Positions 15,339 through 61,578 of a stretch of DNA of 64,000 bases are shown here, one piece after another (the first letter of the stretch is position 1; each line of letters begins with the position of its first letter). Source of the stretch: Massalongia carnosa (taxonomy: Eukaryota); the NCBI GenBank assembly GCA_965645245.1, contig OZ287070.1, forward strand, positions 434,001 through 498,000, given 5' to 3'. A program made the position numbers and the translations under genes. The notes under the pieces were generated by a model. It was not told the origin of the DNA. It worked only from the letters and a program-made list of their open reading frames with translations, and searched no databases.

Positions 15339-18300
15339 ATGGCGACCGCTACCCGTAGCAAGCATTCGAAGCTCGATGCTGTTGTACGTTCGTATCTTTA
15401 CTCGTGGAAATGTAGTGCGCTGAACTCGATTCATCCAGCAAATAAATCAAGGGCTTACAGTGGTGTATCCGGATCCGGATGAGCCGCGAAAGCTGTCAAA
15501 TGAAGAGATATCGGTCGAGTAGGTGTGTTGCTTGGCAGTATCGCAGCTGTTTAATAAAATTGCAGTATCATTGCCGTTCCCGGCCTGGGTGCGAACCCTG
15601 AATGGACCTGGAAAAACAAGAACAAGGTGGACTGGCTTCGAGACTCGAATATGCTTGCCCGTACGACTCCAAACGCGAGAATTCTGATTTTCGAATATGA
15701 AAGTCAGTGGTTTGGGAAGGGATCCATTGACCAGAGACTCGCGAGCGTGGCCAATCAGCTTGTGCAGGCGGTGTTGTACTCAAGACCGGTATATAATCGC
15801 ATAAAACCAAGGTTTCAGGCACAGGCGCATTGAGTGTGCTGACTGTCTGCATAGAGAGGATCTACGCGGCCGATTGTTTTTGTCTGTCATTGTTTGGGAG
15901 GTATCATCGTGGAAAAGGTTAGTCGAAGACCGACACTGCTGACATGCCTGCTCACAACATCCTCAAGGCACTCCTTACGGCGAAGCTCCGCCAAAGCGAC
16001 TACCCCAACATATTCATGTCGGCAGTAGGCTGCATCTTTCTAGGTACCCCATTTCGAGGTACCAAATCCCAGTCCAAAGCGTCTCTATTAGCCGACATGG
16101 CTCAGACGGTGGGACTCGGAATAAATTCAGGACTGGTAAAGCTGCTTGAAGGTGGTTCTGAGACCCTGAAAGATTTGCTCGACGACTTTGTTGCTGCGGC
16201 CAAAGAAGCGAACATGCGGTTGTTTTGCTTCTTTGAACAGCACGAGAGCGATATGATGAGACTCCTTTCGAAGAGTTCTCCGATCAAGCACAAGGTATCG
16301 AGATAGCCTCCGAATCCAATCTGTTTGATGCACCAGCTGAACTTTCCTTGCAGGAAATTATTGTCGAAGAGGATTCAGCAACATTCCCTGGCTTCAATCA
16401 TGGATCCTTAGCATCAGACCATTTTGAGCTGAACAAGTTTAATGGACCAAAAGACGGACGGTACATCTCCGTCTCCAGTGAAATCAGTGCCACTGTCCAG
16501 AAGGCCCGCGGGATTCTCAAGTCCCGTCAAAATGGTAGGATTTTATGAAACCCTGTGTACTTATCTGGTTGACCAATACCATACAGCGGTTCGCCAGACT
16601 CTCATAGATGACGGCACTTATCAAACGATTCTGGACGCTTTGAAAGTCACAGATCCAGCGAAAGACAAGGACGATAGCGTAAGAGGTAGGCCGATAAGTC
16701 AAGCAAAATGGGTGCTCGGCAATGAAAACTACATGACTTGGAAAGATAAACAGGCCTCTAAAGTGCTATGGATTCATGGCACCGCCGGTCAGGGGCAAGC
16801 CGTCATTGCTTCTTCTCTTGTGCAAGAATTATCGGAGCAGGCAAAGAAAGACGACAGCATATTCTTGGCGTATTTTTTCTGTGACGAGAAAGACTCTCAT
16901 CGACGTAGTATACTCGATATTCTGAAGGTCCTCATTCGCCAAATGATCCTCAGGAAGCGTGATCTAACAGAATACCTACTTGTGGATCAACGTAAGGTGA
17001 AGAAAGGTGATCAAAGTTCCCAGAATTTGGAGGCTACATCGGTATCAGCGCTTTGGAACAATCTCCAGAACATGCTTAAAGATCCTTCGATTGGGACGGT
17101 ATATTTTCTTGTGAATGGCCTCGATGAAACGGATCAAGAATCGCGAGAAGAATTTCTTAGCTCACTGGTTCCTTACCTAGAGACCCAGCCTGATGAAGAA
17201 AGCACTTCGGAGGAAAGCATTATTAAATGGGTATTCCTGAGCAGATCTGGCAGGCCTGATATCGAGGCCAAACTACAAAAGGGTCTCGTCATCAATATGG
17301 AAGATAAAGAGAACGTTAGTCACGTTAACGATGCGGTAAAGGCAGAGATATCTGGTCAAGTCGAAAAATTGGCCCAGCAGAAGAGTTATAACGCTGCCCT
17401 TGCGTACTTCATCAAGAGACATATTCATTCAAGAGCCGAGGGGAATTATATATACGTTAACCTTGTGATTCAGGAGCTGAAAAACCTTGAAACGACCCGA
17501 CTGAATAACTCTGGTATCAGGAAATTTTTGGAAGGATTTCCCTATGGCTTGACAAACATGTTTGAGCACATTCGCCGCCGGGTAAGTTTCTCTGAGCATT
17601 TTCCAACTTTCTTCGCTACCCTCAGTTTTGCTACGCCTCTTTTCCTCAAGTGCCATTCGCCGTCAAAGTCTCCGAACCAAAGTTGATATCTGTCAAGAGT
17701 TCTCTAATTTTGAATCGCCTGGCTTTCTGTATCTTGCTAATGAGTTCTAACGCAGGTTTTGGACCCTCAAAGTGAAGGTATTGAATATACCAAAGAGATC
17801 TTCCGATGCCTTATTCTTGCGCACCGATCGCCAACACTGTTCGAACTTGCGCTAATAGCGGACTTGCCGCAAGAAGACCGAAACGACGAGACAAGCTTGA
17901 GACGCTACATCACTCGATGTGGAGCATTCGTCACAATATCCGAGATTGATAATGAAACAGTTGAATGGATTGATGTGGCTGCAAAGGAGCATCTGGAAAC
18001 CTATGCGAAAGATCAGTTATCACTGTCGCTAACAGATGTTCAACATGGTATTGTAGCTCTTCGGTGCCTGGATTTTGTGCGCAAGTATGCGATTGTGCAG
18101 AAGGAAGAGGAAGCTGACGAGGAACCTCCCGATAATCAGGAAGAACCCGATCAGCCAGACCTCACACCTATTGGCCAAGATGCTTCTAATACCCAGGTTG
18201 ACGAGAAGCCCATTGAGGAAGAAGATTATCTAAGTCAAGGCGATCAGACTCAAACTTATCAAGCTTCTAGTTATTCTGACGAATACCCCCAACAGGGCCG

Positions 18301-21300
18301 GCAACCTTTTCTTCATCAGGCTCAAACTTACGATGGCCAGGGCTACGACGGATGGCCCGATCCAGAACAAGACTATGACAATCAAGGGCACGAACATCAG
18401 AATGATTCATTCCCACCTCATATAGATGCCTTGAATGACAAAGATCAAGTTATTGATGGGCAAGAGGATCCAGGCCAACCCGGACCAACTGAAAACAATC
18501 GCCAAGCCGAGCTAGCGAGCAACTCTGGTGAAATAGCCGCTTCGGAGGTCCCTGAGGAAATTCAAATGGATTTAGGATACGCGGGTGAATGCTGGATACA
18601 ACACGCGAAGCTAGCACCAGTCGACGTTGTCGAAGAGTTTAACTTGAACGACGAATTCTGGGTCGAGAATTCTCGCCCCCGAAATGTATGGTGGAGTGCA
18701 TATGCATTAGACAATGGACTCGCTGGCCTGGCAGATGTCACTACTCTTCACATTGGTGCGCTATCCGGCTTTTCTGCGCTAGTAGACCATTTACTCCTAC
18801 AAGAGCGCACGGACGAGATTCATAAGTCAGACTCATGGGGTTTCCGCCCTTTTTACTGGGCTTGTCGGAACGGCGATATTTACCTGGTTCAACGGCTTCT
18901 CAAGGCCGGATCAGATGTAAACGCACACCGCCACGATGGGAATATTACCGCCTTGTGGATCGCAGCATCGGAGGGCCATCTGGAGGTTGTACGATACCTC
19001 CTTAGCCAGAACGCCGAGCTTGACGTACAGGATGAAGAGCTTGGCACGCCGCTATACGTCGCTGCGGAGAACGGTTGCAGCCAGGTGGTCCGACAGCTTT
19101 TAGAACATCAAGCAGATGTGAATCTGGCTGGAGGGTTACATCGCAACCCACTCAACGCGGCTTCATATAACGGACACCTTGAGGTAGTGCAGCTCCTACT
19201 CCAAGCTCATGCAGAAGTAGACCCGGAGGAGGAATATCGATACGGCAGCGCTCTTGGAGCCAGTGCACGAAAGGGCCACATCGATATAGTGCGGCTGTTG
19301 CTGCAGAAGGGTTGGAATGCTAATCGAAAGATCGGGACCTATGGGAGCCCTATAGTTGCAGCTGCTACATACGGCCACGCGGACGTAGTGCAAGCCCTAC
19401 TTGAGCAGAATGTAGATACTTCCTCAAAAGAGCAGGCATTGGAAATTGCCTCAAAGAATGGGAAGACTGATGTTGTCAAGAAGCTTCTGGAGCAGTCCAA
19501 TTACCTGCGACACCAAAAGGCGTTCCTGCTTGCAGCGTCTTTTGGTCGGGATGATGTACTTGAGCTCCTGCAAACGCGAGGCACTAATCCCGACATGTTA
19601 AACAATGCTCTTTATGAGGCATCGGATCATGAACATGAATCCACTGTTGACTTGTTGGTTAAGTTTGGTGCAAATCCCGACGCTGAGGGCGTGGAGTATG
19701 CCACCTATATACCCACCTGCATGTGGACAGGCTAACCTCTCTGTAGATACGGGACCGCACTGACGGCAGCAGCGTTTGACGGCAGCGAAGGAATCGTGCA
19801 AATTCTACTCGATCATGGGGCCAACGTAAACAAGCAAGGGGGCAACTATGGCAATGCCCTCCAAGCTGCTGCATGCTGCGGTAATGTGGATGTCGCTCGA
19901 AAGCTTCTTGACCACGGAGCCCACGTCAACAGGGAAGCCATTGGGATATATGGTAACGCGCTCCAGGCGGCTTGTTATTCTGGAAGTGGTGATCTGGTAG
20001 ATCTATTACTAACGTATGGCGCGGATGTGAATGCCTATGGTGGTACATATGGCTATCCAATTATCGCTGCGGTAGATGAGTGCGATTCAAATGTCCTTAG
20101 GAAACTTCTGGAACATGGTGCCGACGTCAACGTAAAAGGCAGCGAAGATAATACCCCAGTCTTGGTCCTTGCAGGATATGGATTGCTCAAGGATGACATG
20201 GAGTTGCTCCTGCATTACGGAGCGGAAATCGATATTGCAGATGACTGTGGCAATACCGCCTTGATCGCCACAGCAAGCTCCGGAGACACAGAAGGCATTG
20301 AGTTTTTGCTTGATCGTGGAGCAAACATTCACGCCGTTAGCAGCGAGTATGGAGCCGCGCTTCATGCGGCAGCCTCCGAGGGCGATGAAGAATGTCTTCG
20401 AATCCTGATCAGCCGCGGAGCGAATGTAAATCAGGAGGGGGGACCTTGGAATACTTCTTTGCAAGCAGCGGCAATAGCTGCGGACCTTGATTGTATTAGA
20501 ATGCTCATTGACGCCGGCGCAGACGTCAACTTGGGTGGAGGCGATTACGACTCGGCCTTGCAAGCCGCCGCATTTTCCGGTGATCTCGAGTGTCTCCAAG
20601 CGATTTTGGCTGCTGGAGCCGACGTCAGTCATGGAGGCGGCAAGTACGGTAGCGCTCTGCAGGCCGCAGCCATAGTGGGAGAACCCAAATGTCTCCAAGT
20701 TCTTCTGGAAGCAGGCTCGGATGTTAACCAGGCAGGCGGATTATACGGCTCAGCACTGCAAGCAGCGGTCTCCAAAAATCGGAACATCGATTGCGTCGAG
20801 CTACTCTTGGATCATGGCGCCACTGTTCATGCTTACGGTGGACTTTACGGCTCGGTCATGCAGGCTGCGGCCGTAGGTAACAACTTGAACATGTGGGGTC
20901 TACTTGTTGACAATCATGGAGCTGACGCCCATGTGGTTGGGGGGAAATATGGTAATGCTCTCCAGGCTGCAGCTGTGAAGGCTACAGACGATTTTGTGCT
21001 GCGACTGCTGGAGTCTTCCGTCGATGTTTCTAACGAGGTCGGGGGAAAGTACAACACCGCCTTGCAAGCTGCTGCGTACGCCAATCGGCCCGAGGTTGTG
21101 ACAATGCTGCTGGAACATGGTGCGGATGTTAGCATTCAGGGTGGATTCTATGGAAATGCGCTGACTGCCGCGGCGTGTAAGGGCAATACGCGCGTGTTGT
21201 CTCTTTTGCTTGTAAAATCGCTGCCCACAAATATTCTCGATGAGGCGCTTCTGCAAGCCGTTCATCATCGCCAAGCTGGAGTGGTGGAAATGCTCCTCAA

Positions 21301-21424
21301 GCATGGTGCGAATGTCGAGGCGAGAGACGAGACTCTTGGATCTGCTCTAGACGCAATTCAGAAGGAGTTCCAAGCAGACACCAATAGCGACGATGGTGGC
21401 GATGGGTATGAAGAAGAAGATAGC

Positions 21425-21462
<38 letters not shown>

Positions 21463-23116
21463 CGATGAAGAGGGCGAAGGAGAAGCGATTGAGGAGATTG
21501 TGCCTGACGTTCAAGATAATGATGCGAGCGTTGCCAGCCTTCAGCTCGGAGATCCAACCACGGAAGAGAGCAAGATCCTGAAGCTTCTGGAAGACGCCCA
21601 GACAAAGCTAAAGCGGAACCCAAGCGTCAAACGAGTCCGCTCGGTTAGACGTAAACCAGTCTCTCCGAATCCGGCCGGTGGAAATGGCAAAGAGGCGGGG
21701 GTTCGCAATCATGCGCAGTATCTGAACGCTGAACCGGTTGCAGGAAGTCATCCATTTCATAACAACACTTTGCAAGCTTCACAGCCTCAGAACCCTCAGT
21801 ATTCCCAACATCCTATCGCGATGCAACCCCAAGACGCTAGGCCCATGAGTAGCAGCCATGAAGCGTACGGTAGCATTGATCACATTCCTCGGCCTCAGAA
21901 CACCAAAACCTCTTCATATGCTGAATACGGACGAACTCAGCTCCAAAGTGGACAAGCCCCAAGTTCTATGTCGATGAACAGCAACCATACAGGTTATGGG
22001 GGTGGTGTGCAGGTTCCACCCTCTCCTGCTCTCGATTACTCCCAACTTCCCAACCCCGTACAACATCAGCCCCAAGTGCATGATGGCAGCGGCCAAGTAC
22101 CACAGTCTCAGTATCAGGACCCCGTATCGCTTCAGGCCGTTGAACTTGCAGACAGCAACTACCACTTATACGGCGGAAGCGGCCAGATCCCACCGTCTCA
22201 ATCCCTTCAACCCCAATATCCCGTCGCTGGACAGTCCCAGGGGGATGTGCGTCCGCAAAGCAGCCATCATGCATATAGCAGCAGTGGACAAATGCAAACT
22301 CCTCAGCCTCAATATCCTGCCACCGGAATGTCTTACAGTGTTGAGCTTCTTGACAGTCAAGCCTATCCCAACAGCGGCCAGACGTTACAATCTCAATCTC
22401 CTAAACCGCAGTATTCACCCACCAGCAGCCATTATCCATCCTACAGTGGGAGTGGCCTTATCACACCGTCTGCGTCTCCTCATCCCCAGTATTCTGCCAC
22501 AGCTGGTCCACCTTCCGGTGTCGAACGTCCAAATAGCACGCATCAAGCGTCCTACAGTAGCGAACAGTCTCCACGTCCTCAATACTCCCATATGGGACCA
22601 TCTCAGAGCGTTGAACTCCCGCATCACCAAACCTACGGCAGCAACAGTCAAGTCCCGCAAGCGTACAATACCAGCGCCGCAATCCCTCAATCCCAGTCTC
22701 CCCATCCCCAATACGCCACTCCGGGACCACCGCAAGGCGCCGAACCGCAAAACCCCAATTACCATACTTACAGCAACAAACCCCCACCCCCTCCATCGCA
22801 ATCCCCCCACTCCCAATACTCTCAATCCCCCCAACCTCCACCCGCCCGCCCCCAATATCCCCCTAGCAGCAGCAGCGGCGGTGGGCCACCGCTGCCATAT
22901 TCCGGCGCCAGCACGCCACTGCCTCCGCCTCCTGGTTCGTCCCAGCCATACCAGCAGTATTCCAACACACCGCCCCCACCTCCGCCACCGGGAACACAGC
23001 AGGGGTATGGCACTCAGCCGCAGCGGCCGGGCGCGGACGGGTCCGATTTCACCCGGTTGCAGGCCAAGGCGATGAAGTTTGGCTCGTCATTTACGAAGAA
23101 GTTTGGCATTCAGTGA
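15339..23116 (+). CDS. NLR-like protein (~2407 aa): SesB/DUF676-type alpha/beta hydrolase, NACHT-like NTPase, ankyrin array, P/Q/S/Y-rich tail. Exons 15339-15383, 15439-15518, 15566-15788, 15855-15917, 15968-16294, 16354-16534, 16587-17581, 17756-19695, 19747-23116
   Basis: DIIAVPGLGA..WTW, WLRD..L...PNARIL.FEY.SQWFG, RPIVFVCHCLGGIIVEKAL, IFLGTPFRG, FCFFEQ, DHFELNKF; NACHT LWIHG..G.G, YFFCD, GLDE, RAEGNYIYVNLV; many G.YG.ALQAA ankyrin repeats; all eight GT-AG introns keep frame (7224 nt). Confidence 0.9.
21424..21466 (+). repeat. (GAT)n coding microsatellite (poly-Asp)
   Basis: Seen directly, inside the last NLR exon. Confidence 0.9.
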
Positions 23117-45039: not shown

Positions 45040-47943
45040 TTACAGGCCTCCATGACTAGTACTCGTAGAGAGAAAGAGAGGTACCATTGGCCTATCTACG
45101 AAGCAGATCCTCTCCAGCGTCAATACGCTTAGAGATCTGATGTCCAGAGAGCCCCAAACTGTCAACTTCCCGCGCAATATCCCACGGATCCCTCCCTGCT
45201 CATTCGCCTTCCCCTGAAGGTACCGACGGATCCGTCTCTTGACGTAGAACCGCTGCCTCAGGGCAGGAGTGTACCTCCACTTAGCCCCGAAGAGGCGGTC
45301 CAACTTGTCGAGAGACGTACGCCGGACCCCCTCCACCAACGTCCCCACCGCGAATTCCTCCAACACCGCCTCCGCCGAGGTCACGCCGCCGAGAATGGGC
45401 TCCGCCGAGTAGTTAGGCGGACGTTGAGGCGGCCCCTCTTGGGGGAGGGAGCCACAGGGCGCAGAGACCGTAGACGCCTCTCTGGGGACGGAAGTGAGGA
45501 CGACAGAAGGTGTAGGAAGGAGAGAAGCGACTGGGTCGACGTACGAGGACGCCGACGCAGCAGGCTCTTCACCAACGGAGTGCGCCGCCGTCGCAAGAGC
45601 AGTCGCCTGCCCTCGCCAAGACGCCTCGTCCAGCAGCCAGTCCCTCCGAACAGCCTCCACAGGAACCGTCAGAAAGGATCGAGATAGCGTCGAGACCGTG
45701 GCCTGCAACTGTGAGAGCTGCGAACCCAGGACTCGAGCTATCTCCTGGGCATTTGCCGCCGGCAGCGCACTCAAGGTGGTCGTCAGCTGGCTCTGCCCGG
45801 AGAGCAACCTCTCCACAGCGTTGAGCGTGCGATCTTGCTTGATCGCAACACCGCTGACCTTGTTACTGACGCCATCAACGGAGTCAGCAACAAGAGGCAG
45901 CACGCCATGGATGGCCACGTGCAAAGGTTCCTTTTCTACGGCCTCCAACTCCCGTATCTTCGTCGCGAACGCAGGCCAAAGGGGATCTCTGAAGACTTGG
46001 TGTCTCCAGAGCGAAAGCTCAGGAAACTGAGGCTGTAGAAGCGCCGCGTCTTGCAGGAAGACACAACGCAGCCGCAGCAACATCTCCAGAACCTTCTTCC
46101 CTGCCTTATCCGCATCAGGAAAAAGACCGCCTTTGTACGCCGCCAGAGCGTCATCCACCCAAGGCCACACCTGCCGCTGCAGGGCCAGATCCGGTGAGTG
46201 TCCTCCTCTTCTCAAAAAGTAACTCCCGGGGGAGTTGCCAAAGCCGGCGGCGCGACGCATGTAGACACGCGGCAGGCGGGTGAGGTAGTTAGTGGCCCAG
46301 ACGCCACGTTCCCATCCGCCTGCTCCCATGATCTGTAGTAGTTGATATAAGGGTAATGCTAGTAAGTATAAGGGGCCATGAATCGTAGAGTACTTACCTG
46401 GTCCGCGGGGACCTCCCACATGTCGGCCAGCCGTGACGAGGACTGCCGCATGGTGTGGACCGTCTTGGAGCTGTCGACGCCGACAGCATCCAAAGCCGGC
46501 TTGATCCATCGGGCCTGTGTTTTGTCGGAGATCTCCTCCTTAGATCGCGCCATGCTCCCGGAGATGACCTTCGTGAAATACCACGAAGATCGATCCTGGA
46601 AGTCCGGCCGCTTCTCCAGGAGGAGGTCCCAGCGCAAGACGAGCCAGTGGGCGAGGGCGCCGAGAGGACAGAGGACGACATCACTGCTCCGCAAAGCACC
46701 ATGGTAATGCTGGCGGCGCGAGTTGCCCCCGTCCGCCAGAGGAATGCTCTTGCCCTGGTCAATTCGAAGGATCAACGCAAGGCATTCGGACCCCTCGTTA
46801 GGGAGGTCGTAGGCGCAGAGGTCAGGTAGCTCAGCCCTCCGCGTTGACTCCCCTCGCAGCATCATCGAATGCATTAGGAGGAAGTCGAGGCGAGTCCGCA
46901 GGAGGTCCCACTCGCCGCCCGCCACGCCCTCCTCCCCCAAAACCTTGCCCCCGGCGAGCAGCATTGCCGACAATTGAGCGGCCTGCTCAGTCGTGTAACC
47001 GTTGGTGAGGCCGTGGATCGCGCGATCCTCGAACGAGGCCCGCTTGAAAGCGCTCCAACCGATGCGTAAGCGCGTCATCAGGGCTTTGGTGGCCTTCCCT
47101 CTGGGATGGGGCACCACCAAATTCTCTTCGAGATGCTGGTCATCGAAGAGGGCGCAGAGGCAGAGACGTAGCCCGATTCCACGCTATCGGGCGCCAGGGC
47201 CGGGATAAAGGGTCGTCGGCTTGCTGTAAGACGAGTCAGTAAGCTACAAAAAGATGATTCTATCCCTGAATTCGAGTTCAGGGGGCGACTCACCGTCTCA
47301 ACGAGCTCCTCGCCGTCGGAGAATTCCTCGAATTTTTCCACCTCCTCCACCTCCTCTCCCTCTACCGCTAGCGAGGCTTCCACCGCCTCCATCGCCTTCC
47401 CCTTCCCCCTCTTCAACGCGCGGCGCTTAGCCTGCCGTTGGCGATTCTGATCCCGCCGCCTGGCCTGCGCTGCTGCGCCTGTGAGCTTGGGACGTGGGAC
47501 GAAGCGCAGGCGGAGGACGACCTCTTCGAGGAAGAGGAGCATCTTCCCCTCCCACACAAGAACGCCGTTAGGAAAATTGCGACGTCGGCACCACTTCTGT
47601 AGGATGTTAGCGTAGCCCCAAATTTGTAGGGCATACCTATCGTAGTTACCTCCCATAGATGCTAGCACTTGCGGTACGTCTTAAGGGTGTTGGCCCTCCG
47701 ATCCTCCTCCCGCATCCCGCGGACGCGCCTCATGATGGCGGCCATGGCGGCCTCGTTGTTGCCGTGGGTGGCATAGGCCTGAGACTCACGCTTGACGGCG
47801 TCGACATCAACGTAAGCCTCAGGAGGAGGCCAAGAAAGAGGCGCCGCCGTCTCCGGATCTGCGACAGCGGGGCCTGCAGCGGAGGGGCCCGGGTCCATTG
47901 TGCGGTCGCCAAAGAGGGTATCCGTGGTATGTAGAACGCTCAT
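45040..47943 (-). pseudogene. Crypton tyrosine recombinase (Ndc10 domain II-like plus C-terminal GCR1_C); introns 47649-47597, 47293-47224, 46397-46333; stop at 47664-47662 and 1-2 single-base frameshifts at ~47210-47158
   Basis: NTLKTYRKC*HLWE/KWC..F..G.LV.EGK..LFL; PHPRG; DFLL.H.MMLRGE..R..EL.DL; QGK; GALR..D..LCPLGALA; PDF..R.SWY; HTMR; AGGW; NYLTRLP..YMR.AAGF; LRLR.VFLQDA; LD..FGAKWR. Confidence 0.88.
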
Positions 47944-48064
47944 TGATCAGCAAGTCACTCGCGGCGCAAAACGGGGACAGGCAGGCTTTTTGCAGTTCGA
48001 CTGAATGGGTCGAGGAGAGAAAATCGTGGTATGGAGCTTGGTCACGGGCGATATTGTCCATATA

Positions 48065-53123: not shown

Positions 53124-53492
53124 TTTGGCTTGTTATGGGAAGATGGGAGTTTGGAGGATGTCGTCGCCGCGAAATTGAATGGAGTTTGTGTGTGCTGCAA
53201 GGTTTGGAATAGCCGAGGAGCTACTAACTAGACTGAAACGGGTTAGCTTAGCTACTCACGGCTTTTAGCGTTACAGCTTTGCTTCGGCGGCGAGAGCTTT
53301 CTGTACTCACTGTCACTCGCTTGCAGCAACGTTCTATCGGCTGTTATGAGAGCGTAGAGGCTGCTGTTGAACATTGAAGTTCAGGCCACCGCTGGTCATT
53401 AACCGCTATTGTTCACAGGAGCGTTGAAGATTGGGGAGCTAGGATTCTGATCGCGTCTATACCTCCACCATCACATTACCATACTGCTCAGC
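53124..53492. promoter_or_regulatory. Compact divergent intergenic region between RPL34 and PRP8, probable bidirectional promoter
   Basis: 369 bp between opposed ATGs. Confidence 0.5.
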
Positions 53493-56400
53493 ATGCCTTC
53501 CCTTCCACCTCCTCCAGGATGGGGAGCAGCACCGCTGTCTATGCCATCTGCTCCACCCCCGCCTGGCTATCAACCGCCTTCCGACCCTCAGGTGGCGAAG
53601 TTCGCACAGAAGAAGAAGGAATGGCTACGATCACAACGGAACCGATTCGGCGAAAAGCGAAAAACAGGGTTTGTCGAGACCCAGAAAGCAGACATGCCGC
53701 CGGAGCATCTTCGCAAGATTGTCAAGGACATTGGCGATGTATCGCAGAAGAAGTTTAGCAGCGACAAGAGGAGTTATCTGGGAGCTCTGAAGTTCATGCC
53801 CCATGCTGTGCTGAAGCTCTTGGAAAATATGCCTATGCCGTGGGAGTCATCGAGGGAGGTTAAAGTTCTGTATCACGTCAATGGATGTTTAACGATGGTC
53901 AATGAGATTCCGAGGGTTATCGAGCCGGTGTTTCATGCACAGTGGGCGACCATGTGGGTGTGCATGCGAAGGGAGAAGAGTGATCGAAGGCATTTTAAGC
54001 GCATGCGCTTCCCTCCATTCGATGATGAAGAGCCGCCGCTCTCATGGTCGGAGAATATCGAGGACGTGGAGCCTCTTGAGCCGATTCAGATGGAACTAGA
54101 CGAAGCCGAAGACGGGCCTGTCTTTGAATGGCTGTATGAACATCGGCCATTACTGGATACGCCCCACGTCAACGGTCCAAGCTACAAAGAATGGAATCTC
54201 ACTTTACCGCAGATGGCGACCCTCTATCGGCTCAGCCATCAACTTCTTAGCGATCTTGTTGATAAGAACTACTTCCATATGTTTGACCTCAACAGCTTCC
54301 TAACCGCCAAGGCGTTGAATGTTGCAATCCCTGGGGGCCCAAGGTTTGAGCCTTTGTATAAGGATGTTGATCCGAACGACGAGGATTTTGGAGAGTTCAA
54401 CGCTATTGATCGCATCATTTTCCGAGCACCGATTCGAACAGAATACCGCGTTGCGTTCCCTTTCCTCTACAATTCCCTCCCTCGCAGCGTTAAACTCTCG
54501 CATTACTCGTATCCACAAGTGGTATACGTGCGCGCCGAAGACCCGAGTCTTCCTGCTTTCTACTTCGACCCTATTATTAATCCGATCTCCTCTCGGTCGG
54601 TAGTCCCCAAGAACATCACTGTTAGCCATGAAGATGAGATATTCGGATTCGGCAATAACGAGGACGAGGAGTTCTCGCTACCGCCCAGTGTGGAGCCTTT
54701 CCTGGCAGACGAGGAACTCTATACTAGCGAAACATCTTCAGCTATTGCTCTTTGGTGGGCACCATTCCCATTCGATCGTCGATCCGGTCGTATGGTGCGT
54801 GCGCAAGACGTGCCCTTGGTAAAGCAATGGTATCTTGAGCATTGTCCGCAAGGCCAGCCGGTGAAGGTCCGAGTATCTTACCAGAAGCTGCTGAAGACTT
54901 ATGTCTTGAATGAGTTACACAAGAAGAAACCAAAGGCCCAGAATAAGCAGAACCTGATGACCTCTCTTCGATCCACCAAATTTTTCCAGCAAACCACCAT
55001 TGATTGGGTTGAAGCGGGTCTTCAAGTTTGCCGTCAGGGCTTCAATATGCTGAATTTACTCATCCACCGAAAGAATCTTACATACTTGCACTTGGACTAT
55101 AATTTCAACCTTAAGCCTGTGAAGACGCTAACCACAAAGGAGCGGAAAAAGTCACGTTTTGGGAATGCCTTCCATTTGATGCGGGAGATCCTTCGGTTGA
55201 CCAAGCTAATTGTTGATGCCCAAGTTCAATATCGCCTTGGTAACATTGATGCCTTCCAATTAGCAGACGGTATACTTTATGCCTTCAACCACGTTGGGCA
55301 ACTTACAGGGATGTATCGATACAAGTATAAGCTGATGCACCAGATTCGATCGTGTAAAGATCTTAAGCATCTTATTTATTACCGGTTCAACTCCGGTCCT
55401 GTAGGAAAGGGCCCGGGATGTGGGTTTTGGGCACCGGCCTGGAGGGTATGGTTGTTCTTCATGAGAGGCATCATTCCATTGCTTGAGCGATGGTTGGGGA
55501 ATCTGCTTTCCAGACAGTTTGAAGGTCGGCACAGTAAAGGCGTCGCAAAGACCGTTACGAAGCAAAGAGTGGAGTCACACTTTGATCTTGAGCTGCGTGC
55601 ATCCGTCATGGCAGATCTTATGGATATGATGCCTGAAGGGATCAAACAGAACAAGGTCAACACTGTATTGCAGCATCTGTCTGAGGCATGGAGATGCTGG
55701 AAGAGTAATATTCCTTGGAAGGTGCCAGGCCTGCCTGCGCCCATCGAAAACATTATCTTACGATATGTTAAGAGTAAAGCGGATTGGTGGATTTCCGTTG
55801 CGCATTACAATCGTGAACGCATCAGAAGGGGTGCAACGGTTGACAAGACCGTTGCCAAGAAAAATCTAGGCCGACTGACACGACTTTGGCTAAAGGCTGA
55901 GCAGGAACGACAGCACAACTATATGAAAGACGGTCCCTACGTATCTTCCGAAGAAGCTGTTGCAATTTACACTACTACTGTTCATTGGCTCGAGTCCAGG
56001 AAATATTCTCCTATTCCATTCCCAGCAGTCTCCTATAAGCACGATACCAAAATCTTGATCCTGGCTTTAGAGCGATTGCGAGAAGCCTACTCTGTAAAGG
56101 GGCGTCTCAATCAGAGCCAGAGAGAAGAGCTTGCGCTAATTGAACAAGCTTATGACTCTCCTGGGACAACGCTAACCCGGATCAAGCGGTTCTTACTGAC
56201 TCAACGGGCCTTTAAAGAAGTTGGTATCGACATGAACGATAATTATAGCAGTATCAATCCTGTCTATGACATCGAGCCAATCGAGAAGATCACCGATGCT
56301 TATCTTGATCAGTATCTATGGTATCAAGCAGATCAACGGCATCTTTTCCCTGCATGGATCAAACCTTCAGACTCCGAAGTACCACCACTCCTCACATACA

Positions 56401-59400
56401 AGTGGGCTCAAGGAATCAATAACCTTGGTGGTGTATGGGAGACTGCAGAAGGGGAGTGTAACGTGATGATCGAAACTCAATTATCGAAGGTGTATGAGAA
56501 AATTGATCTTACGCTGCTAAATCGACTCACACGGTTGATTATGGATCACAACTTGGCGGATTACATCTCCTCCAAGAACAATGTTCAATTGAACTACAAA
56601 GACATGAATCACACCAATAACTATGGCATGATCAGAGGCTTGCAGTTCTCGGCGTTTGTGTTCCAATATTATGGACTGGTTCTGGATTTACTACTTCTTG
56701 GTTTACAGCGTGCGAGCGAGATTGCTGGCCCGCCCCAGAGTCCAAACGACTTCTTGCAGTTTCGAGATCGCACCACGGAAACCAAACATCCAATTCGTCT
56801 CTACACTAGGTACATTGACCGTATCTGGGTCTTCTTAAGATTTTCTGCAGACGAGTCGAGGGATCTGATCCAGCGATTTCTGACAGAGCAGCCAGATCCT
56901 AATTTTGAAAATGTAATTGGTTATCGCAACAAGAAGTGCTGGCCGCGAGACTCGCGAATGAGGCTAATGCGACACGATGTCAATTTGGGCCGGGCGGTAT
57001 TTTGGGACCTGAAAAACAGGCTTCCGAGATCCGTTACAACTATTGAATGGGATGATACGTTTGCTAGCGTGTATAGTAAGGACAACCCAAACCTGCTGTT
57101 CTCGATGAGTGGGTTTGAGGTACGGATTTTGCCTAAGATCCGCAACATGAACGAAGAATTCCAGGTAAAGGACAGCGTCTGGTCACTTGTGGATAACACA
57201 ACGAAAGAGCGAACAGCCCATGCGTTCCTTCAGGTTACAGAGGAGGACATTCAAAAATTCAATAATCGGATCCGGCAAATTCTGATGTCTTCTGGTTCAA
57301 CTACCTTCACCAAAATTGCCAATAAATGGAATACAAGCCTAATCGCACTATTCACCTATTATCGCGAAGCTGCTGTCTCCACCGTCAATCTTCTAGATAC
57401 GATAGTGAAATGCGAGACAAAAATCCAAACACGGGTCAAGATCGGCCTGAACTCCAAAATGCCCTCCAGGTTTCCACCCGCCGTTTTCTATACGCCAAAA
57501 GAATTGGGTGGTTTGGGTATGATATCCGGTTCACATATCCTAATTCCAACCAGTGACAAGCGGTGGTCAAAGCAAACCGATACTGGTGTAACACATTACC
57601 GGGCAGGTATGAGTCACGATGAAGAAACGCTTATCCCAAATATCTTCAGATATATCATCCCTTGGGAGGCTGAGTTCATCGACTCACAACGTGTCTGGAC
57701 CGAATACTCGCAGAAGCGACAAGAGGCTAATCAGCAAAATCGTCGTCTGACTCTTGAGGACTTGGAGGATAGTTGGGATCGGGGTTTGCCTCGCATTAAT
57801 ACCCTGTTCCAGAAGGATCGAAGTACACTTAGCTTCGACAAAGGGTTTAGGGCGCGGACAGAGTTTAAGACCTATCAGCTGATGAAGAGCAATCCGTTTT
57901 GGTGGACGAGCCAAAGACACGATGGTAAGCTGTGGAATCTAAACGCATACCGGACGGATGTTATCCAAGCTCTTGGTGGTGTCGAAACCATCCTCGAACA
58001 TACCTTGTTCAAGGCTACAGCATTTCCATCTTGGGAAGGTCTCTTCTGGGAAAAGGCTTCGGGATTCGAGGAGTCGATGAAATTTAAGAAACTGACCAAT
58101 GCGCAGCGTTCCGGTCTGAACCAAATTCCAAATCGGCGCTTCACATTATGGTGGTCGCCCACAATCAATCGCGCCAATGTCTATGTAGGCTTTCAAGTGC
58201 AGCTTGATCTGACTGGTATATTTTTGCACGGCAAGATTCCAACACTTAAGATCTCTCTGATTCAGATATTCCGAGCCCATCTATGGCAGAAAATCCACGA
58301 ATCGGTGGTCATGGATTTGTGTCAAGTTTTCGATCAAGAGTTGGATCAATTAGGCATTGAAACCGTACAAAAGGAGACCATCCATCCTAGAAAGTCCTAC
58401 AAGATGAACAGCTCCTGCGCTGATATACTTCTCTTTGCCACTCACAAATGGAACGTTACAAGGCCTTCGATCTTATTCGATACCAAGGATATTACGGAGC
58501 CGACAACCACTAACAAATTCTGGGTCGATGTTCAACTTCGGTATGGTGATTATGATTCGCATGACATTGAGCGGTATGTACGTGCAAAGTATCTAGATTA
58601 TACTACCGATAGCATGAGTATATATCCATCTCCAACAGGGTTGATGATTGGTATTGATCTTGCCTATAACTTATACTCGGCATACGGCCAGTATTTCCCT
58701 GGGCTTAAAAGTTTGATCCAGCATGCAATGGCAAAGATCATGAAAGCCAATCCTGCTCTCTACGTTCTTCGCGAACGTATCAGGAAAGGTTTACAGCTAT
58801 ATGCGTCGGAGAGTAACCAAGAGTTTTTGAACTCGCAGAATTATTCAGAGCTCTTTAGCAATCAGATACAGCTGTTCATTGATGACACGAACGTATACCG
58901 GGTTACCATTCATAAGACGTTTGAGGGCAATCTCACCACGAAACCCATAAATGGAGCAATTTTTATCTTCAATCCTAGGACTGGCCAGCTATTCCTCAAG
59001 ATCATCCACACTAGTGTCTGGGCCGGACAAAAACGGTTGGGTCAGTTAGCTAAATGGAAGACCGCGGAGGAAGTAGCAGCCTTGATCCGATCGCTACCAG
59101 TCGAAGAGCAGCCAAAACAGCTTATTGTAACGAGAAAAGGCTTATTGGATCCACTGGAAGTACACTTGTTAGACTTTCCTAACATTTCGATTCGAGCTTC
59201 TGAGCTTCAACTGCCCTTCCAAGCGGCCATGAAGGTGGAGAAACTGGCAGATATGATCCTTCGTGCCACCGAGCCAAAGATGATGCTATACAATCTTTAT
59301 GATGAATGGCTGAAGACGATATCCTCGTACACAGCCTTCTCGCGGCTCATCCTTATCCTGCGCGCGCTGCATGTCAATCAAGACAAGACTAAACTGCTTC

Positions 59401-60660
59401 TGCGTCCCGATAAAACTGTTATCACCAAGGAGCATCATATATGGCCAACCCTTTCCGATGAGGATTGGATGAAAGTAGAAGTGCAACTACGAGATCTGAT
59501 CTTGAATGATTATGGGAAGAAGAACAATGTCAATACCTCGAGCTTAACCAGCAGTGAAGTTCGGGACATAATTCTAGGCATGGAAATCAGCGCACCGTCA
59601 ATGCAACGGCAACAAGCTGCCGAAATCGAAAAGCAGAAAGAAGAGCAGCAGCAGCTTACGGCTGTTACCACCAAAACCCAAAACGTTCATGGCGAAGATA
59701 TCATCGTCACGACTACTTCACAGTTCGAACAGCAATCCTTTGCCTCGAAAACCGAATGGCGCACCCGAGCCATAGCCACTTCTAATCTTCGAACCCGCGC
59801 CAACAACATTTACATTTCCTCTGACGATATACGCGAAGACGATCACTTCACCTACATCATGCCCAAAAACATTCTCAAGCGCTTTATCACCATCGCTGAT
59901 CTGCGCGTTCAAGTTGCCGGCTACCTTTATGGCAGCTCACCACCAGACAACGCCCAAGTCAAGGAAATCCGCACCATAGTCATGATTCCTCAAGTCGGCA
60001 ACACCCGAGACATTCAGCTGCCGCATCAACTACCCCAACACCCGAACCTCACCAGCCTTGAACCCCTAGGTCTTATCCACACCGTTTCCGGCAACGAAAC
60101 TTCTTACATGACCGCTCCCGACACGACTCAGCACGCGCGTCTTATGGCCGTGCACCCAACCTGGGACAAGAAAACCGTCACCATGACCGTCTCCTTCACG
60201 CCCGGCTCCGTCTCGCTGGCTGCATGGGCCCTCACGCCTGCAGGCTACAAATGGGGCAGCGAAAACCGTGACCTGAGCAGCGACCAGCCGCAGGGGTTCT
60301 CGACTACATCCATGAGCGAGAAATGTCAGCTTCTGCTTAGCGATAAGATTAGAGGGTACTTCCTTGTGCCGGAAGGGAATTTGTGGAATTATAGTTTTAT
60401 GGGTAGTTCGTTTGGGAGTGTGGAGAAAAAGGGAGTTTTTGTGAAGATGGATACGCCGTTGGTAAGTCTAGGTGTCTTGTCTTTTTCTCTTTTTTGGTGT
60501 AATCTATCTTTCTTGCAGCTTTACCCTGGAAAAAGGCATGCCGCAACTGTGCTAATAAGTTCCATAGTCGTTCTATGCCGACCAGCACCGCCCGCTGCAT
60601 TTCCAGAATTTCGCCGAGCTCGAGGACATTTGGGTCGATCGCACCGACAATTTCGAATAG
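53493..60660 (+). CDS. PRP8: Pre-mRNA splicing factor Prp8, no intein; exons 53493-60461 and 60568-60660
   Basis: [32 protein letters not shown] and the other Prp8 blocks; terminal intron GTAAGT..GCTAAT..TAG gives the conserved end [25 protein letters not shown]. Confidence 0.98.
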
Positions 60661-61578
60661 ATTATCTCAAGTCACTTCTACACACTTCCTCTTATCATGA
60701 ATGAGAGCATCGTTTTAGTTATCTGCCGAGCCGAAGGAAAAAGGACGGGGCATCTTAGCTCTCCTATAACTTTATGGCTTGAAGAGGGAGAAAACTAGGG
60801 GGGGGAAGGTTAGGGGGGGGGGGGGTAAAAGGAATGGCAAGGGTTGCGGACATGCGACAGGGTCAGGCTGCCATGCGCTGTTACGAGGTGCGGAGATTTT
60901 CGTTGCTGATGGTTATTTATTCTACTGTACAACAGCCGCCAAGGAACCTTTCTATCGTTCCCCTTCCAGTTGGAGAGATGGTGATGATAAGCCGCGTACG
61001 TACGTACGTACCTATGGATTGGACGCTTCCGCATTAAGAAAAATCGCGAGGGAAGAGAGAGCAAGGGATGGGGCTGGCAAGGCCTTGGTGTGGGGGGGGG
61101 TTGTAAAAGTAAATAGTAATAGAAAAATATAAAAAATATAAAAAATCAAACACAGCTAGCCAAGTAATCGTGAGCAGCTTTAACTACCCATGCAGTTAAA
61201 GCTTACCTCGCTCGCTACGTACATACATACAGAGTACCTATTGTAGCTAGTGATGTACCTCACCTAAGTCCCATACGGGAGTGCATACCAACCACCCGCC
61301 GAATTATCACGCCCCCCCCAATCGGCAACCCCCGGGTCTGCTATCCCAAAAACCAAAAAAAAACAGGTCGGTTATGTGTTTGTGTGGGGGAGATATACGT
61401 ACATGCGTACGTACGTACGTATTCTTCTTCTTACCTATCTAATAAATACACTTCCCCTCCGCTCCCCAAGCCGCGGAACCCTTCTTCGCTTCGCTCGCTG
61501 AACTCCCCAACCGCCGTGCGGTACGGCGCCCTCCCCCCAAAAAGCACATAAACAGCAAAGAATAAAGAACGGAAAGCC

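Follow-up and report, generated by a model that had tools for sequence, protein, structure and literature searches.

An ascomycete NLR clade with a NACHT module that lacks canonical nucleotide-contact residues

We analysed 64,000 nucleotides of Massalongia carnosa DNA (assembly GCA_965645245.1, contig OZ287070.1, positions 434,001 to 498,000 of the forward strand), here called the window and numbered from its first base. On its plus strand, at 15339-23116, lies a gene for a nucleotide-binding oligomerisation domain (NOD)-like receptor (NLR) whose NACHT module carries other residues at the places that hold the phosphate and magnesium contacts in canonical relatives. We put at roughly 0.6 the probability that this gene is a functional member of an old, conserved ascomycete NLR clade of hydrolase / NACHT / ankyrin layout, in which the NACHT domain serves as a nucleotide-independent scaffold linking ankyrin sensing to a Cys/Ser hydrolase. 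Across animals, plants, fungi and bacteria, the explanation given for NLR activation is ADP/ATP exchange at the NOD module. A natural, conserved and broad clade without the canonical phosphate and Mg contacts, with layout and effector kept, would offer a clean test of nucleotide-free NLR signalling.

Direct reading of the codons gave GGC ACC GCC GGT CAG GGG CAA GCC for the Walker A stretch, encoding GTAGQGQA, and GTA TAT TTT CTT GTG AAT GGC CTC GAT GAA for the Walker B stretch, encoding VYFLVNGLDE (coordinates in Table 1). Both lie in one frame, that of a 417-amino-acid (aa) open stretch at 16433-17686. Against the Walker A pattern GxxxxGK[ST], Gln377 occupies the place of the Lys and Ala378 that of the Ser/Thr, with the glycines kept; against the Walker B pattern hhhhD[GAS]hDE, as given for NACHT in PMC12258605, Asn483 stands at the first Asp and the G-L-D-E part is retained (D486-E487). 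The sensor-1 Arg after strand 4 is present (R526 in FLSRSGRPD), and the winged-helix 'sensor 2' His is replaced by D711 in VEWIDVAAKEHL. An earlier note on this DNA, made from its letters, had read the two motifs as GTAGQGQA and YFLVNGLDE within 16778-17128; the codons agree with both readings, and the interval runs from the first base of the Walker A Gly codon to the last base of the Walker B Glu codon.

We then asked how these residues are distributed among relatives. A word-indexed search favouring longer proteins returned a first set of 37 matches, and GK[ST], which the earlier note had considered might be retained by orthologues, was missing in 35 of them. The only two proteins to carry GKGKT or GCGKT, with DALDE, were P0036 and P0037, the most distant of the 37 (28% and 24% identity). 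An exhaustive HMMER search of 1.84 billion representatives produced 8175 matches at E <= 0.001, including 51 at E <= 1e-30; of the 8175, the top 150 were used. Motifs were mapped onto the query in 183 proteins, and the 175 rows that cover 260 aa or more of the domain were kept (174 database proteins and the query). These comprise 109 canonical rows, 51 without both motifs, 13 without the Walker B Asp alone and 2 without Walker A alone.

A maximum-likelihood tree was built from 106 rows, namely all 66 non-canonical rows and 40 of the 109 canonical ones. It places 49 both-motif-lacking rows, the window protein included, in a single clade (Shimodaira-Hasegawa-like approximate likelihood ratio test, SH-aLRT, 98), and this clade forms with Walker-B-only rows a 67-row group, support 99, apart from the canonical rows. 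The 49-row (99) and 67-row (99) groups were both recovered by FastTree on all 175 rows after removal of 20 motif columns. Named members of the clade include the lichen-forming Lecanoromycetes Xanthocarpia, Heterodermia, Pyrenodesmia and Flavoplaca, and the Dothideomycetes Lentithecium, Polyplosphaeria, Clohesyomyces, Lophium, Amniculicola, Byssothecium and a Phaeosphaeriaceae sp. Their database names are uninformative ('hypothetical protein', 'ankyrin', 'Nephrocystin 3-like N-terminal domain-containing protein'). Motif loss is therefore a clade-wide trait and not the decay of one copy.

Column statistics, which compare the 49 clade rows with the 109 canonical rows, revealed a consistent pattern of replacement. 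At the Walker A Lys place, 98% of clade rows have Gln and all canonical rows (100%) have Lys. In the clade, no residue dominates the next place, which holds Pro (the top residue, 37%), Ala (as in the window), Gly, Asp, Glu or Lys, whereas 94% of canonical rows have Thr. At the Walker B place every canonical row (100%) has Asp and 55% of clade rows have Asn; Tyr, Phe or His occurs instead in the Dothideomycete branch, followed by G-[IL]-[DE]-Q. With the canonical rows so uniform at these three columns, the motif assignment is not a matter of chance. Many polar positions are conserved in the clade only, among others R106, R117, R222, D239, Y273, K276, N286, Q295, N299 and R311 in exon-7 numbering, which fits new constraints rather than decay. 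We also considered whether a 'shifted lysine' compensates for the loss, since G-x-A-G-K-G-Q, in which a Lys lies two residues upstream, occurs in many Lecanoromycete orthologues, and rejected it: canonical relatives often already have G-x-P-G-K-G-K-T, the Dothideomycete branch has Thr at that place, and the window protein, P0008 and P0021 have Gln.

The winged helix adds a further loss to those in the earlier note. Its canonical motif is F-V-H-Q-S-A-K-D-Y-L, with the His in 95 of 97 canonical rows, and it corresponds to the F-h-H-x-x-h-Q-E-[YF] signature of NACHT proteins (PMC12258605). Among the 26 both-motif-lacking rows that reach this place, Asp was found in 19, Asn in 3, His in 3 and a gap in 1; the window protein has Asp711. 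In ADP-bound NLRP3 the 'sensor 2' His is turned towards the alpha/beta phosphates, and the H522D substitution lowers ATP turnover ~6-fold; NLRP6 naturally has a negative charge at this position (PMC9633759). As judged by alignment, four phosphate/Mg-contact positions (Walker A Lys, Ser/Thr, Walker B Asp and winged-helix His) are thus replaced together.

Sister lineages that keep GK[ST] while the Walker B Asp is replaced by Asn or another residue (e.g. V-I-N-N-L-H) are represented by P0052, P0054, P0098, P0105, P0111, P0114 and P0118, and further by P0132, P0165-P0167, P0174 and P0179. One such row comes from Aspergillus venezuelensis. The winged-helix His is kept in 6 of the 8 Walker-B-only sister rows that are long enough to show the winged helix.

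Despite the lost contacts, the predicted structure argues that the P-loop core and the helical fold of STAND/AAA+ proteins are retained. The AlphaFold2 model of the exon-7 module, computed from a 35-row alignment, has a predicted local distance difference test score (pLDDT) of 87.2 and a predicted template modelling score (pTM) of 0.86, and shows the strand-helix order of a P-loop NTPase. Its VIA matches were Cdc6/Orc1 (Z 14.2), Avs3 (13.1), MalT (13.0), ZAR1 (12.3), Dark and NRC2 (both 11.9), Apaf-1 (10.3) and NLRP2 (9.4), and Foldseek matched it to ORC/Cdc6, MalT and CED-4, scores that do not tell NACHT from other STAND/AAA+ folds. When solved structures were searched by sequence with the NACHT exon, all matches were at chance level (E > 0.5). 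Over the same module, Pfam NPHP3_N (PF24883) scores 97 bits against a cut-off of 24.8 (E 1.7e-27) and Pfam NACHT (PF05729) scores 21.7 bits, under its cut-off of 26.7.

The gene that encodes this module appears complete. Our model, assembled from open frames, has nine exons and a coding sequence of 7224 nt (2407 codons and TGA), reproducing exactly the 9-exon frame of ~2407 codons that had been noted before; the assembled exon sequence has no internal stop across the 2407 codons. All eight introns are GT..AG and measure 47-174 nt, and in collinear alignment the first exons and the exon 7/8 junction match orthologous proteins. One protein therefore combines the three parts of the fungal NLR architecture, an effector-type N-terminus, a NOD module and C-terminal ankyrin (ANK) repeats. 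Near its C-terminus, the poly-Asp run and the P/Q/S/Y-rich tail look, by composition, like a disordered, prion-like region.

Intron 7 (17582-17755) spans 174 nt, roughly three times the size of the other seven (47-66 nt). Tails of the P/Q/S/Y type, similar in make-up and different in sequence, also occur in the full-length orthologues P0014, P0020, P0024 and P0046. Many orthologue database entries are 640-680 aa long and end just past the NACHT exon (P0001-P0013, P0015, P0016, P0018 and P0021-P0023). These short gene calls appear to run into the following intron, and the real length is probably ~1900-2400 aa, like that of the NCBI models P0014, P0019, P0020 and P0024.

In the N-terminal domain, the putative nucleophile elbow reads C-H-C-L-G-G, with Cys at the Ser place of GxSxG, after a predicted strand and before a helix. 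Most aligned orthologues have Cys at the elbow and three have Ser (P0014, P0018 and P0020); such an exchange is as expected of a working nucleophile, and suggests that the domain has a working Cys/Ser nucleophile. Lipase/esterase-like 'sesB-like' domains are among the commonest fungal NLR N-termini (PMC4986451, PMC12258605), and our use of the label 'sesB-like' follows the literature (PMC4986451) and not a profile match. Orthologue Pfam matches, to DUF676, Abhydrolase_6, Hydrolase_4 and PGAP1, are all below cut-off. The best non-AAA+ match of the model of orthologue P0001 is a thioesterase domain of a non-ribosomal peptide synthetase (8w2c_A, E 2.9e-5, rank 15). Candidates for the catalytic acid and His lie in D/E-S-A and D-H motifs that are invariant or nearly so in 24 orthologues (S254, A255, D268 and H269 in P0001), where the pLDDT is below 50. 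A profile search of solved structures was dominated by ankyrin-repeat proteins, the longer members carrying ANK repeats, and was uninformative on the hydrolase domain.

Could this copy nevertheless be decaying or recently inactivated, an incipient pseudogene that has kept its open frame by chance? Family-defining motif residues are missing, transposase open reading frames (ORFs) lie nearby, and fungal NLR genes often pseudogenise (PMC13449251). We nonetheless consider such decay extremely improbable, as the 7.2-kb frame has eight consensus introns and no stop, and the same substitutions are conserved across two fungal classes. Across the 50 columns with at least 90% conservation in the clade, the window copy shows 0 deviations. 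Its terminal branch is short as well (0.17; the sister P0038 has 0.33 and the median is 0.36), so that there is no sign in these measures of the relaxed selection that the earlier note had allowed for. Judged from the alignment, the fold and many other positions are under strong purifying selection.

The stretch is present in five public runs from three studies. None of the nine runs listed was an RNA run, and the four that were aligned were contigs of the gene in its unspliced genomic form, without splice joints. A lichen-metagenome run from another study (X4) contains the same gene with 16 differences over ~7.8 kb. Three of these are in intron 7, five are synonymous and eight non-synonymous (A392P, E566D, I1147V, Y1442H, A1449V, A2086P, S2232P and T2374A); the motifs are untouched and the frame is intact in this second sample too. 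The gene is thus intact, as had been claimed, in its open frame, its consensus introns and its second occurrence. From the 13 coding differences, the ratio of non-synonymous to synonymous polymorphism (pN/pS) is ~0.48, which is compatible with constraint and, the counts being too small, not significantly below neutral, so that it is also compatible with decay. For codon models, a metagenome contig scan for orthologue DNA gave two loci (L001 and L002) that, at 26-30% identity, were too distant and were left unused.

What the module does may be approached from the residues it has lost. By established P-loop chemistry, a module that has neither the Lys that contacts the beta/gamma phosphates nor the two Mg ligands (Thr, Asp) would be incapable of canonical NTP hydrolysis. 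The acidic residue at the place of the His, which faces the phosphates of ADP, would likewise prevent ADP from holding the protein shut as it does classical NLRs. Canonical Mg-NTP hydrolysis and ADP-locked autoinhibition have thus very probably been lost. As three defining NACHT motifs are absent, we file the module as NACHT-derived and catalytically degenerate, and not as a NACHT NTPase. We propose that the module would serve as a structural and oligomerisation scaffold that works independently of nucleotide. Binding of a ligand to the ~25 ankyrin repeats would be relayed by protein-protein rearrangement alone, and this rearrangement would bring together or release the N-terminal Cys/Ser alpha/beta-hydrolase effector.

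Several observations weigh against this proposal. We infer the loss of nucleotide binding from residues alone, and the oligomerisation and effector steps are drawn by analogy from other NLRs. The P-loop glycines are kept in the clade at 100%, 90% and 96%, the Gln at the Lys place is itself 98% conserved, and the sensor-1 Arg R526 is present in 100% of clade rows (93% of canonical rows); since a ligand-free loop should drift, these might reflect some retained anion or ligand contact. The Walker B D-E pair is kept by Lecanoromycete members, including the window protein, and the three both-motif-lacking rows with a winged-helix His retain that contact. On the effector side, the hydrolase domain model of P0001 is moderate (pLDDT 70.4, below 50 over residues 227-279). 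The pN/pS given above, which does not differ significantly from neutral, belongs with these points.

The conserved P-loop glycines, Gln and sensor-1 Arg, and the D-E pair kept in the Lecanoromycete branch, are what would be expected if the module binds a nucleotide or phosphate ligand in a non-canonical, Mg-independent manner, through the amides of the Gly-rich loop, Gln377, Arg526 and clade-specific Arg/Lys residues, as a binding-only switch or with a permanent cofactor, and without hydrolysis. Selection for Gln specifically at a dead site needs explaining, and a second Arg, R529, is 98% conserved in the clade and not conserved in canonical rows. However, both Mg ligands and the phosphate-contacting Lys are gone, the acidic residue in 19 of 26 rows at the His place should repel phosphate, the place after the Gln is free to vary, and the glycines may be structural only, forming a tight strand-to-helix turn. 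We therefore regard non-canonical binding as possible and somewhat unlikely. A bolder form of the idea, which we find quite doubtful, is that the switch has been exchanged and not just lost, with Gln377, the Gly-rich loop, the sensor-1 Arg and clade-specific Arg/Lys/Tyr/Asp residues forming a pocket for a different ligand or a protein-only latch. If true, this would be the first eukaryotic NLR lineage gated other than by ADP/ATP exchange, across two ascomycete classes including lichen-forming fungi.

The protein might instead sense or regulate as one partner in an NLR pair or network, detecting ligand through its ankyrin repeats while a separate helper NLR with an intact P-loop signals, an arrangement that can coexist with the other readings and would resemble plant NLRs without a P-loop motif (Pb1) or with degenerate P-loop mutations. 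In favour of this reading, canonical NACHT relatives abound in ascomycetes (the 109 canonical rows). No second NLR was found beside the gene among the ORFs scanned in the window, however, and the protein has its own conserved effector-type domain and nucleophile, so that it is not an effector-less decoy. We consider such pairing decidedly unlikely.

The nearest known systems are the fungal sesB-like / NACHT (TLP1-like, 'T-NACHT') / ankyrin NLRs, which have the same layout and an NPHP3_N-matching NACHT (Dyrka et al. 2014, PMC4986451; Bonometti et al. 2025, PMC12258605). The canonical relatives in our alignment (LWIHGDPGKGKTML ... DALDEC ... FVHQSAKDYL) are the nearest non-degenerate homologues, at ~30% identity, and the window protein is descended from TLP1-type fungal NACHT proteins. 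The clade departs from canonical fungal sesB/NACHT/ankyrin NLRs in having all four contact residues (Walker A Lys and Thr, Walker B Asp, winged-helix His) replaced, a state that is fixed throughout it. The earlier note had interpreted the gene as a nucleotide-independent pseudo-NLR acting as scaffold, decoy or regulator, and as a candidate for an undescribed signalling system. The first part is partly supported: the catalytic residues are missing, the case for loss of the canonical switch is strengthened by the winged-helix His replacement, nucleotide independence is the likelier reading, and the data are neutral on a decoy or regulator role. The second is overstated, as sesB-like / NACHT / ankyrin is among the commonest fungal NLR layouts and non-canonical P-loops were noted in 2014 (PMC4986451, PMC12258605).

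In that 2014 study, Dyrka et al. described 'noncanonical P-loop motifs' in fungal NLR candidates, and their Table S1 has single-residue P-loop variants alone, with no G-x4-G-Q row and no Gln at the Lys place (PMC4986451). A 2026 Podospora survey admitted only proteins with GxxxxGK[ST] and the Walker B Asp, and the clade would be passed over by fungal NLR surveys based on GxxxxGK[ST] such as this one (PMC13449251). No description of a conserved fungal NACHT clade with G-Q for G-K-[ST] was found in the literature searched, with most papers in subscription journals and some supplements outside its coverage.

Bacterial inactive STAND modules have reportedly been described by Kaur et al. in 2020 and 2021. 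The iSTAND and iSTAND2 modules are likewise STAND folds with eroded NTP-binding motifs, and are sensor or assembly parts of conflict systems; however, these systems are bacterial and three-gene (MoxR-vWA), whereas the window gene is eukaryotic, single and intron-bearing (PMC8195603). Membership of Pfam iSTAND (PF19995) was rejected for the window protein, at 20.0 bits against a cut-off of 24 and with no stretch passing alone. A score below this cut-off and clear descent from fungal NACHT together indicate that the motif loss is independent of that in bacterial iSTAND.

Plant NLRs without a working P-loop (rice Pb1 and Arabidopsis NLRs with a degenerate P-loop) are presumed to use a scaffold- or helper-type mechanism outside nucleotide cycling; these have NB-ARC modules and other effectors, whereas the window clade has NACHT, has lost four contact positions and spans two fungal classes (PMC3478704). 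The NACHT of human NLRP3 and NLRP6 is built on the corresponding motifs (Walker A GK[ST], Walker B hhhhDGxDE, sensor-1 Arg and sensor-2 His). Both animal proteins retain the Lys of Walker A and the Asp of Walker B, which the window protein lacks, and ATP is hydrolysed by NLRP3 (PMC9633759).

Within the 67-row group, the Walker-B-only sister lineages may represent intermediate stages in losing the switch. Rooted on the canonical majority, the tree suggests a stepwise path in which the Walker B Asp, and with it hydrolysis, was lost first, and the Walker A Lys/Thr, and with them binding, later; against this, the tree is unrooted and the order of losses depends on the canonical majority being the outgroup. 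These sister lineages would supply a natural series of intermediate states. Lichen-forming fungi, in which NLRs have been proposed as partner-recognition candidates (bioRxiv 10.1101/2024.08.16.608140), feature prominently in the clade.

Table 1. Features of the NLR gene and of other loci in the window.
Feature	Position	Strand	Basis
NLR exons 1-9	15339-15383, 15439-15518, 15566-15788, 15855-15917, 15968-16294, 16354-16534, 16587-17581, 17756-19695, 19747-23116	+	ends agree with orthologues
Exons 1-6: N-terminal alpha/beta-hydrolase-like (sesB-like type) putative effector domain, ~aa 1-306	15339-16534	+	full-length alignment to orthologues
Putative nucleophile elbow C-H-C-L-G-G, exon 4 (Cys codon TGT, 15891-15893)	15885-15902	+	orthologue alignment
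Exon 7: NACHT / NPHP3_N P-loop module, aa 307-638	16587-17581	+	Pfam; AlphaFold2 model; STAND/AAA+ fold matches
Degenerate Walker A, G371-T-A-G-Q-G-Q377-A378	16778-16801	+	direct translation, alignment
Degenerate Walker B, V478-Y-F-L-V-N483-G-L-D486-E487	17099-17128	+	direct translation, alignment
Sensor-1 region, F-L-S-R526-S-G-R529-P-D	17234-17260	+	alignment
Winged-helix motif, V-E-W-I-D711-V-A-A-K-E-H-L	17960-17995	+	alignment
Acidic/Gln-rich low-complexity linker, ~aa 740-930	18059-18631	+	composition (D 12%, E 12%, Q 13%)
Ankyrin repeat region, ~aa 975-1815, ~25 repeats of 33 aa, intron 8 within	18764-21337	+	Pfam Ank families, E 1e-56 to 6e-62; repeat pattern counts
Poly-Asp/Glu run, D14E2	21425-21472	+	sequence
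P/Q/S/Y-rich low-complexity tail, ~420 aa, five P-x-P-Q-Y units, then a short basic C-terminal end	21770-23032	+	composition of last 400 aa (P 18%, S 17%, Q 14%, Y 7%)
piggyBac-like transposase, 593 aa	7673-9454	-	long open frame; Pfam DDE_Tnp_1_7, E 7e-48
Tc5/pogo-like transposase, 562 aa	34524-36212	+	long open frame; Pfam DDE_1 and HTH_Tnp_Tc5
NDC10_II-domain ORF	45040-46539	-	Pfam, E 4e-13
Prp8, one uninterrupted 2417-aa frame	53451-60704	+	all seven Pfam Prp8 domains

The window, fungal nuclear DNA whose introns are short and of GT..AG type, also carries genes for Prp8, Slx4 and a fungal-specific transcription factor, among others. Upstream of the NLR gene the ORFs encode Slx4, the piggyBac-like transposase and DUF6601, and downstream PAF-AH, a fungal transcription factor and others. 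Two long transposase frames place the NLR gene in a region with apparently intact DNA transposons. The NDC10_II ORF adjoins the GC-richest part of the window, 46001-48000, where the GC fraction is 0.60 as compared to 0.41-0.54 elsewhere.

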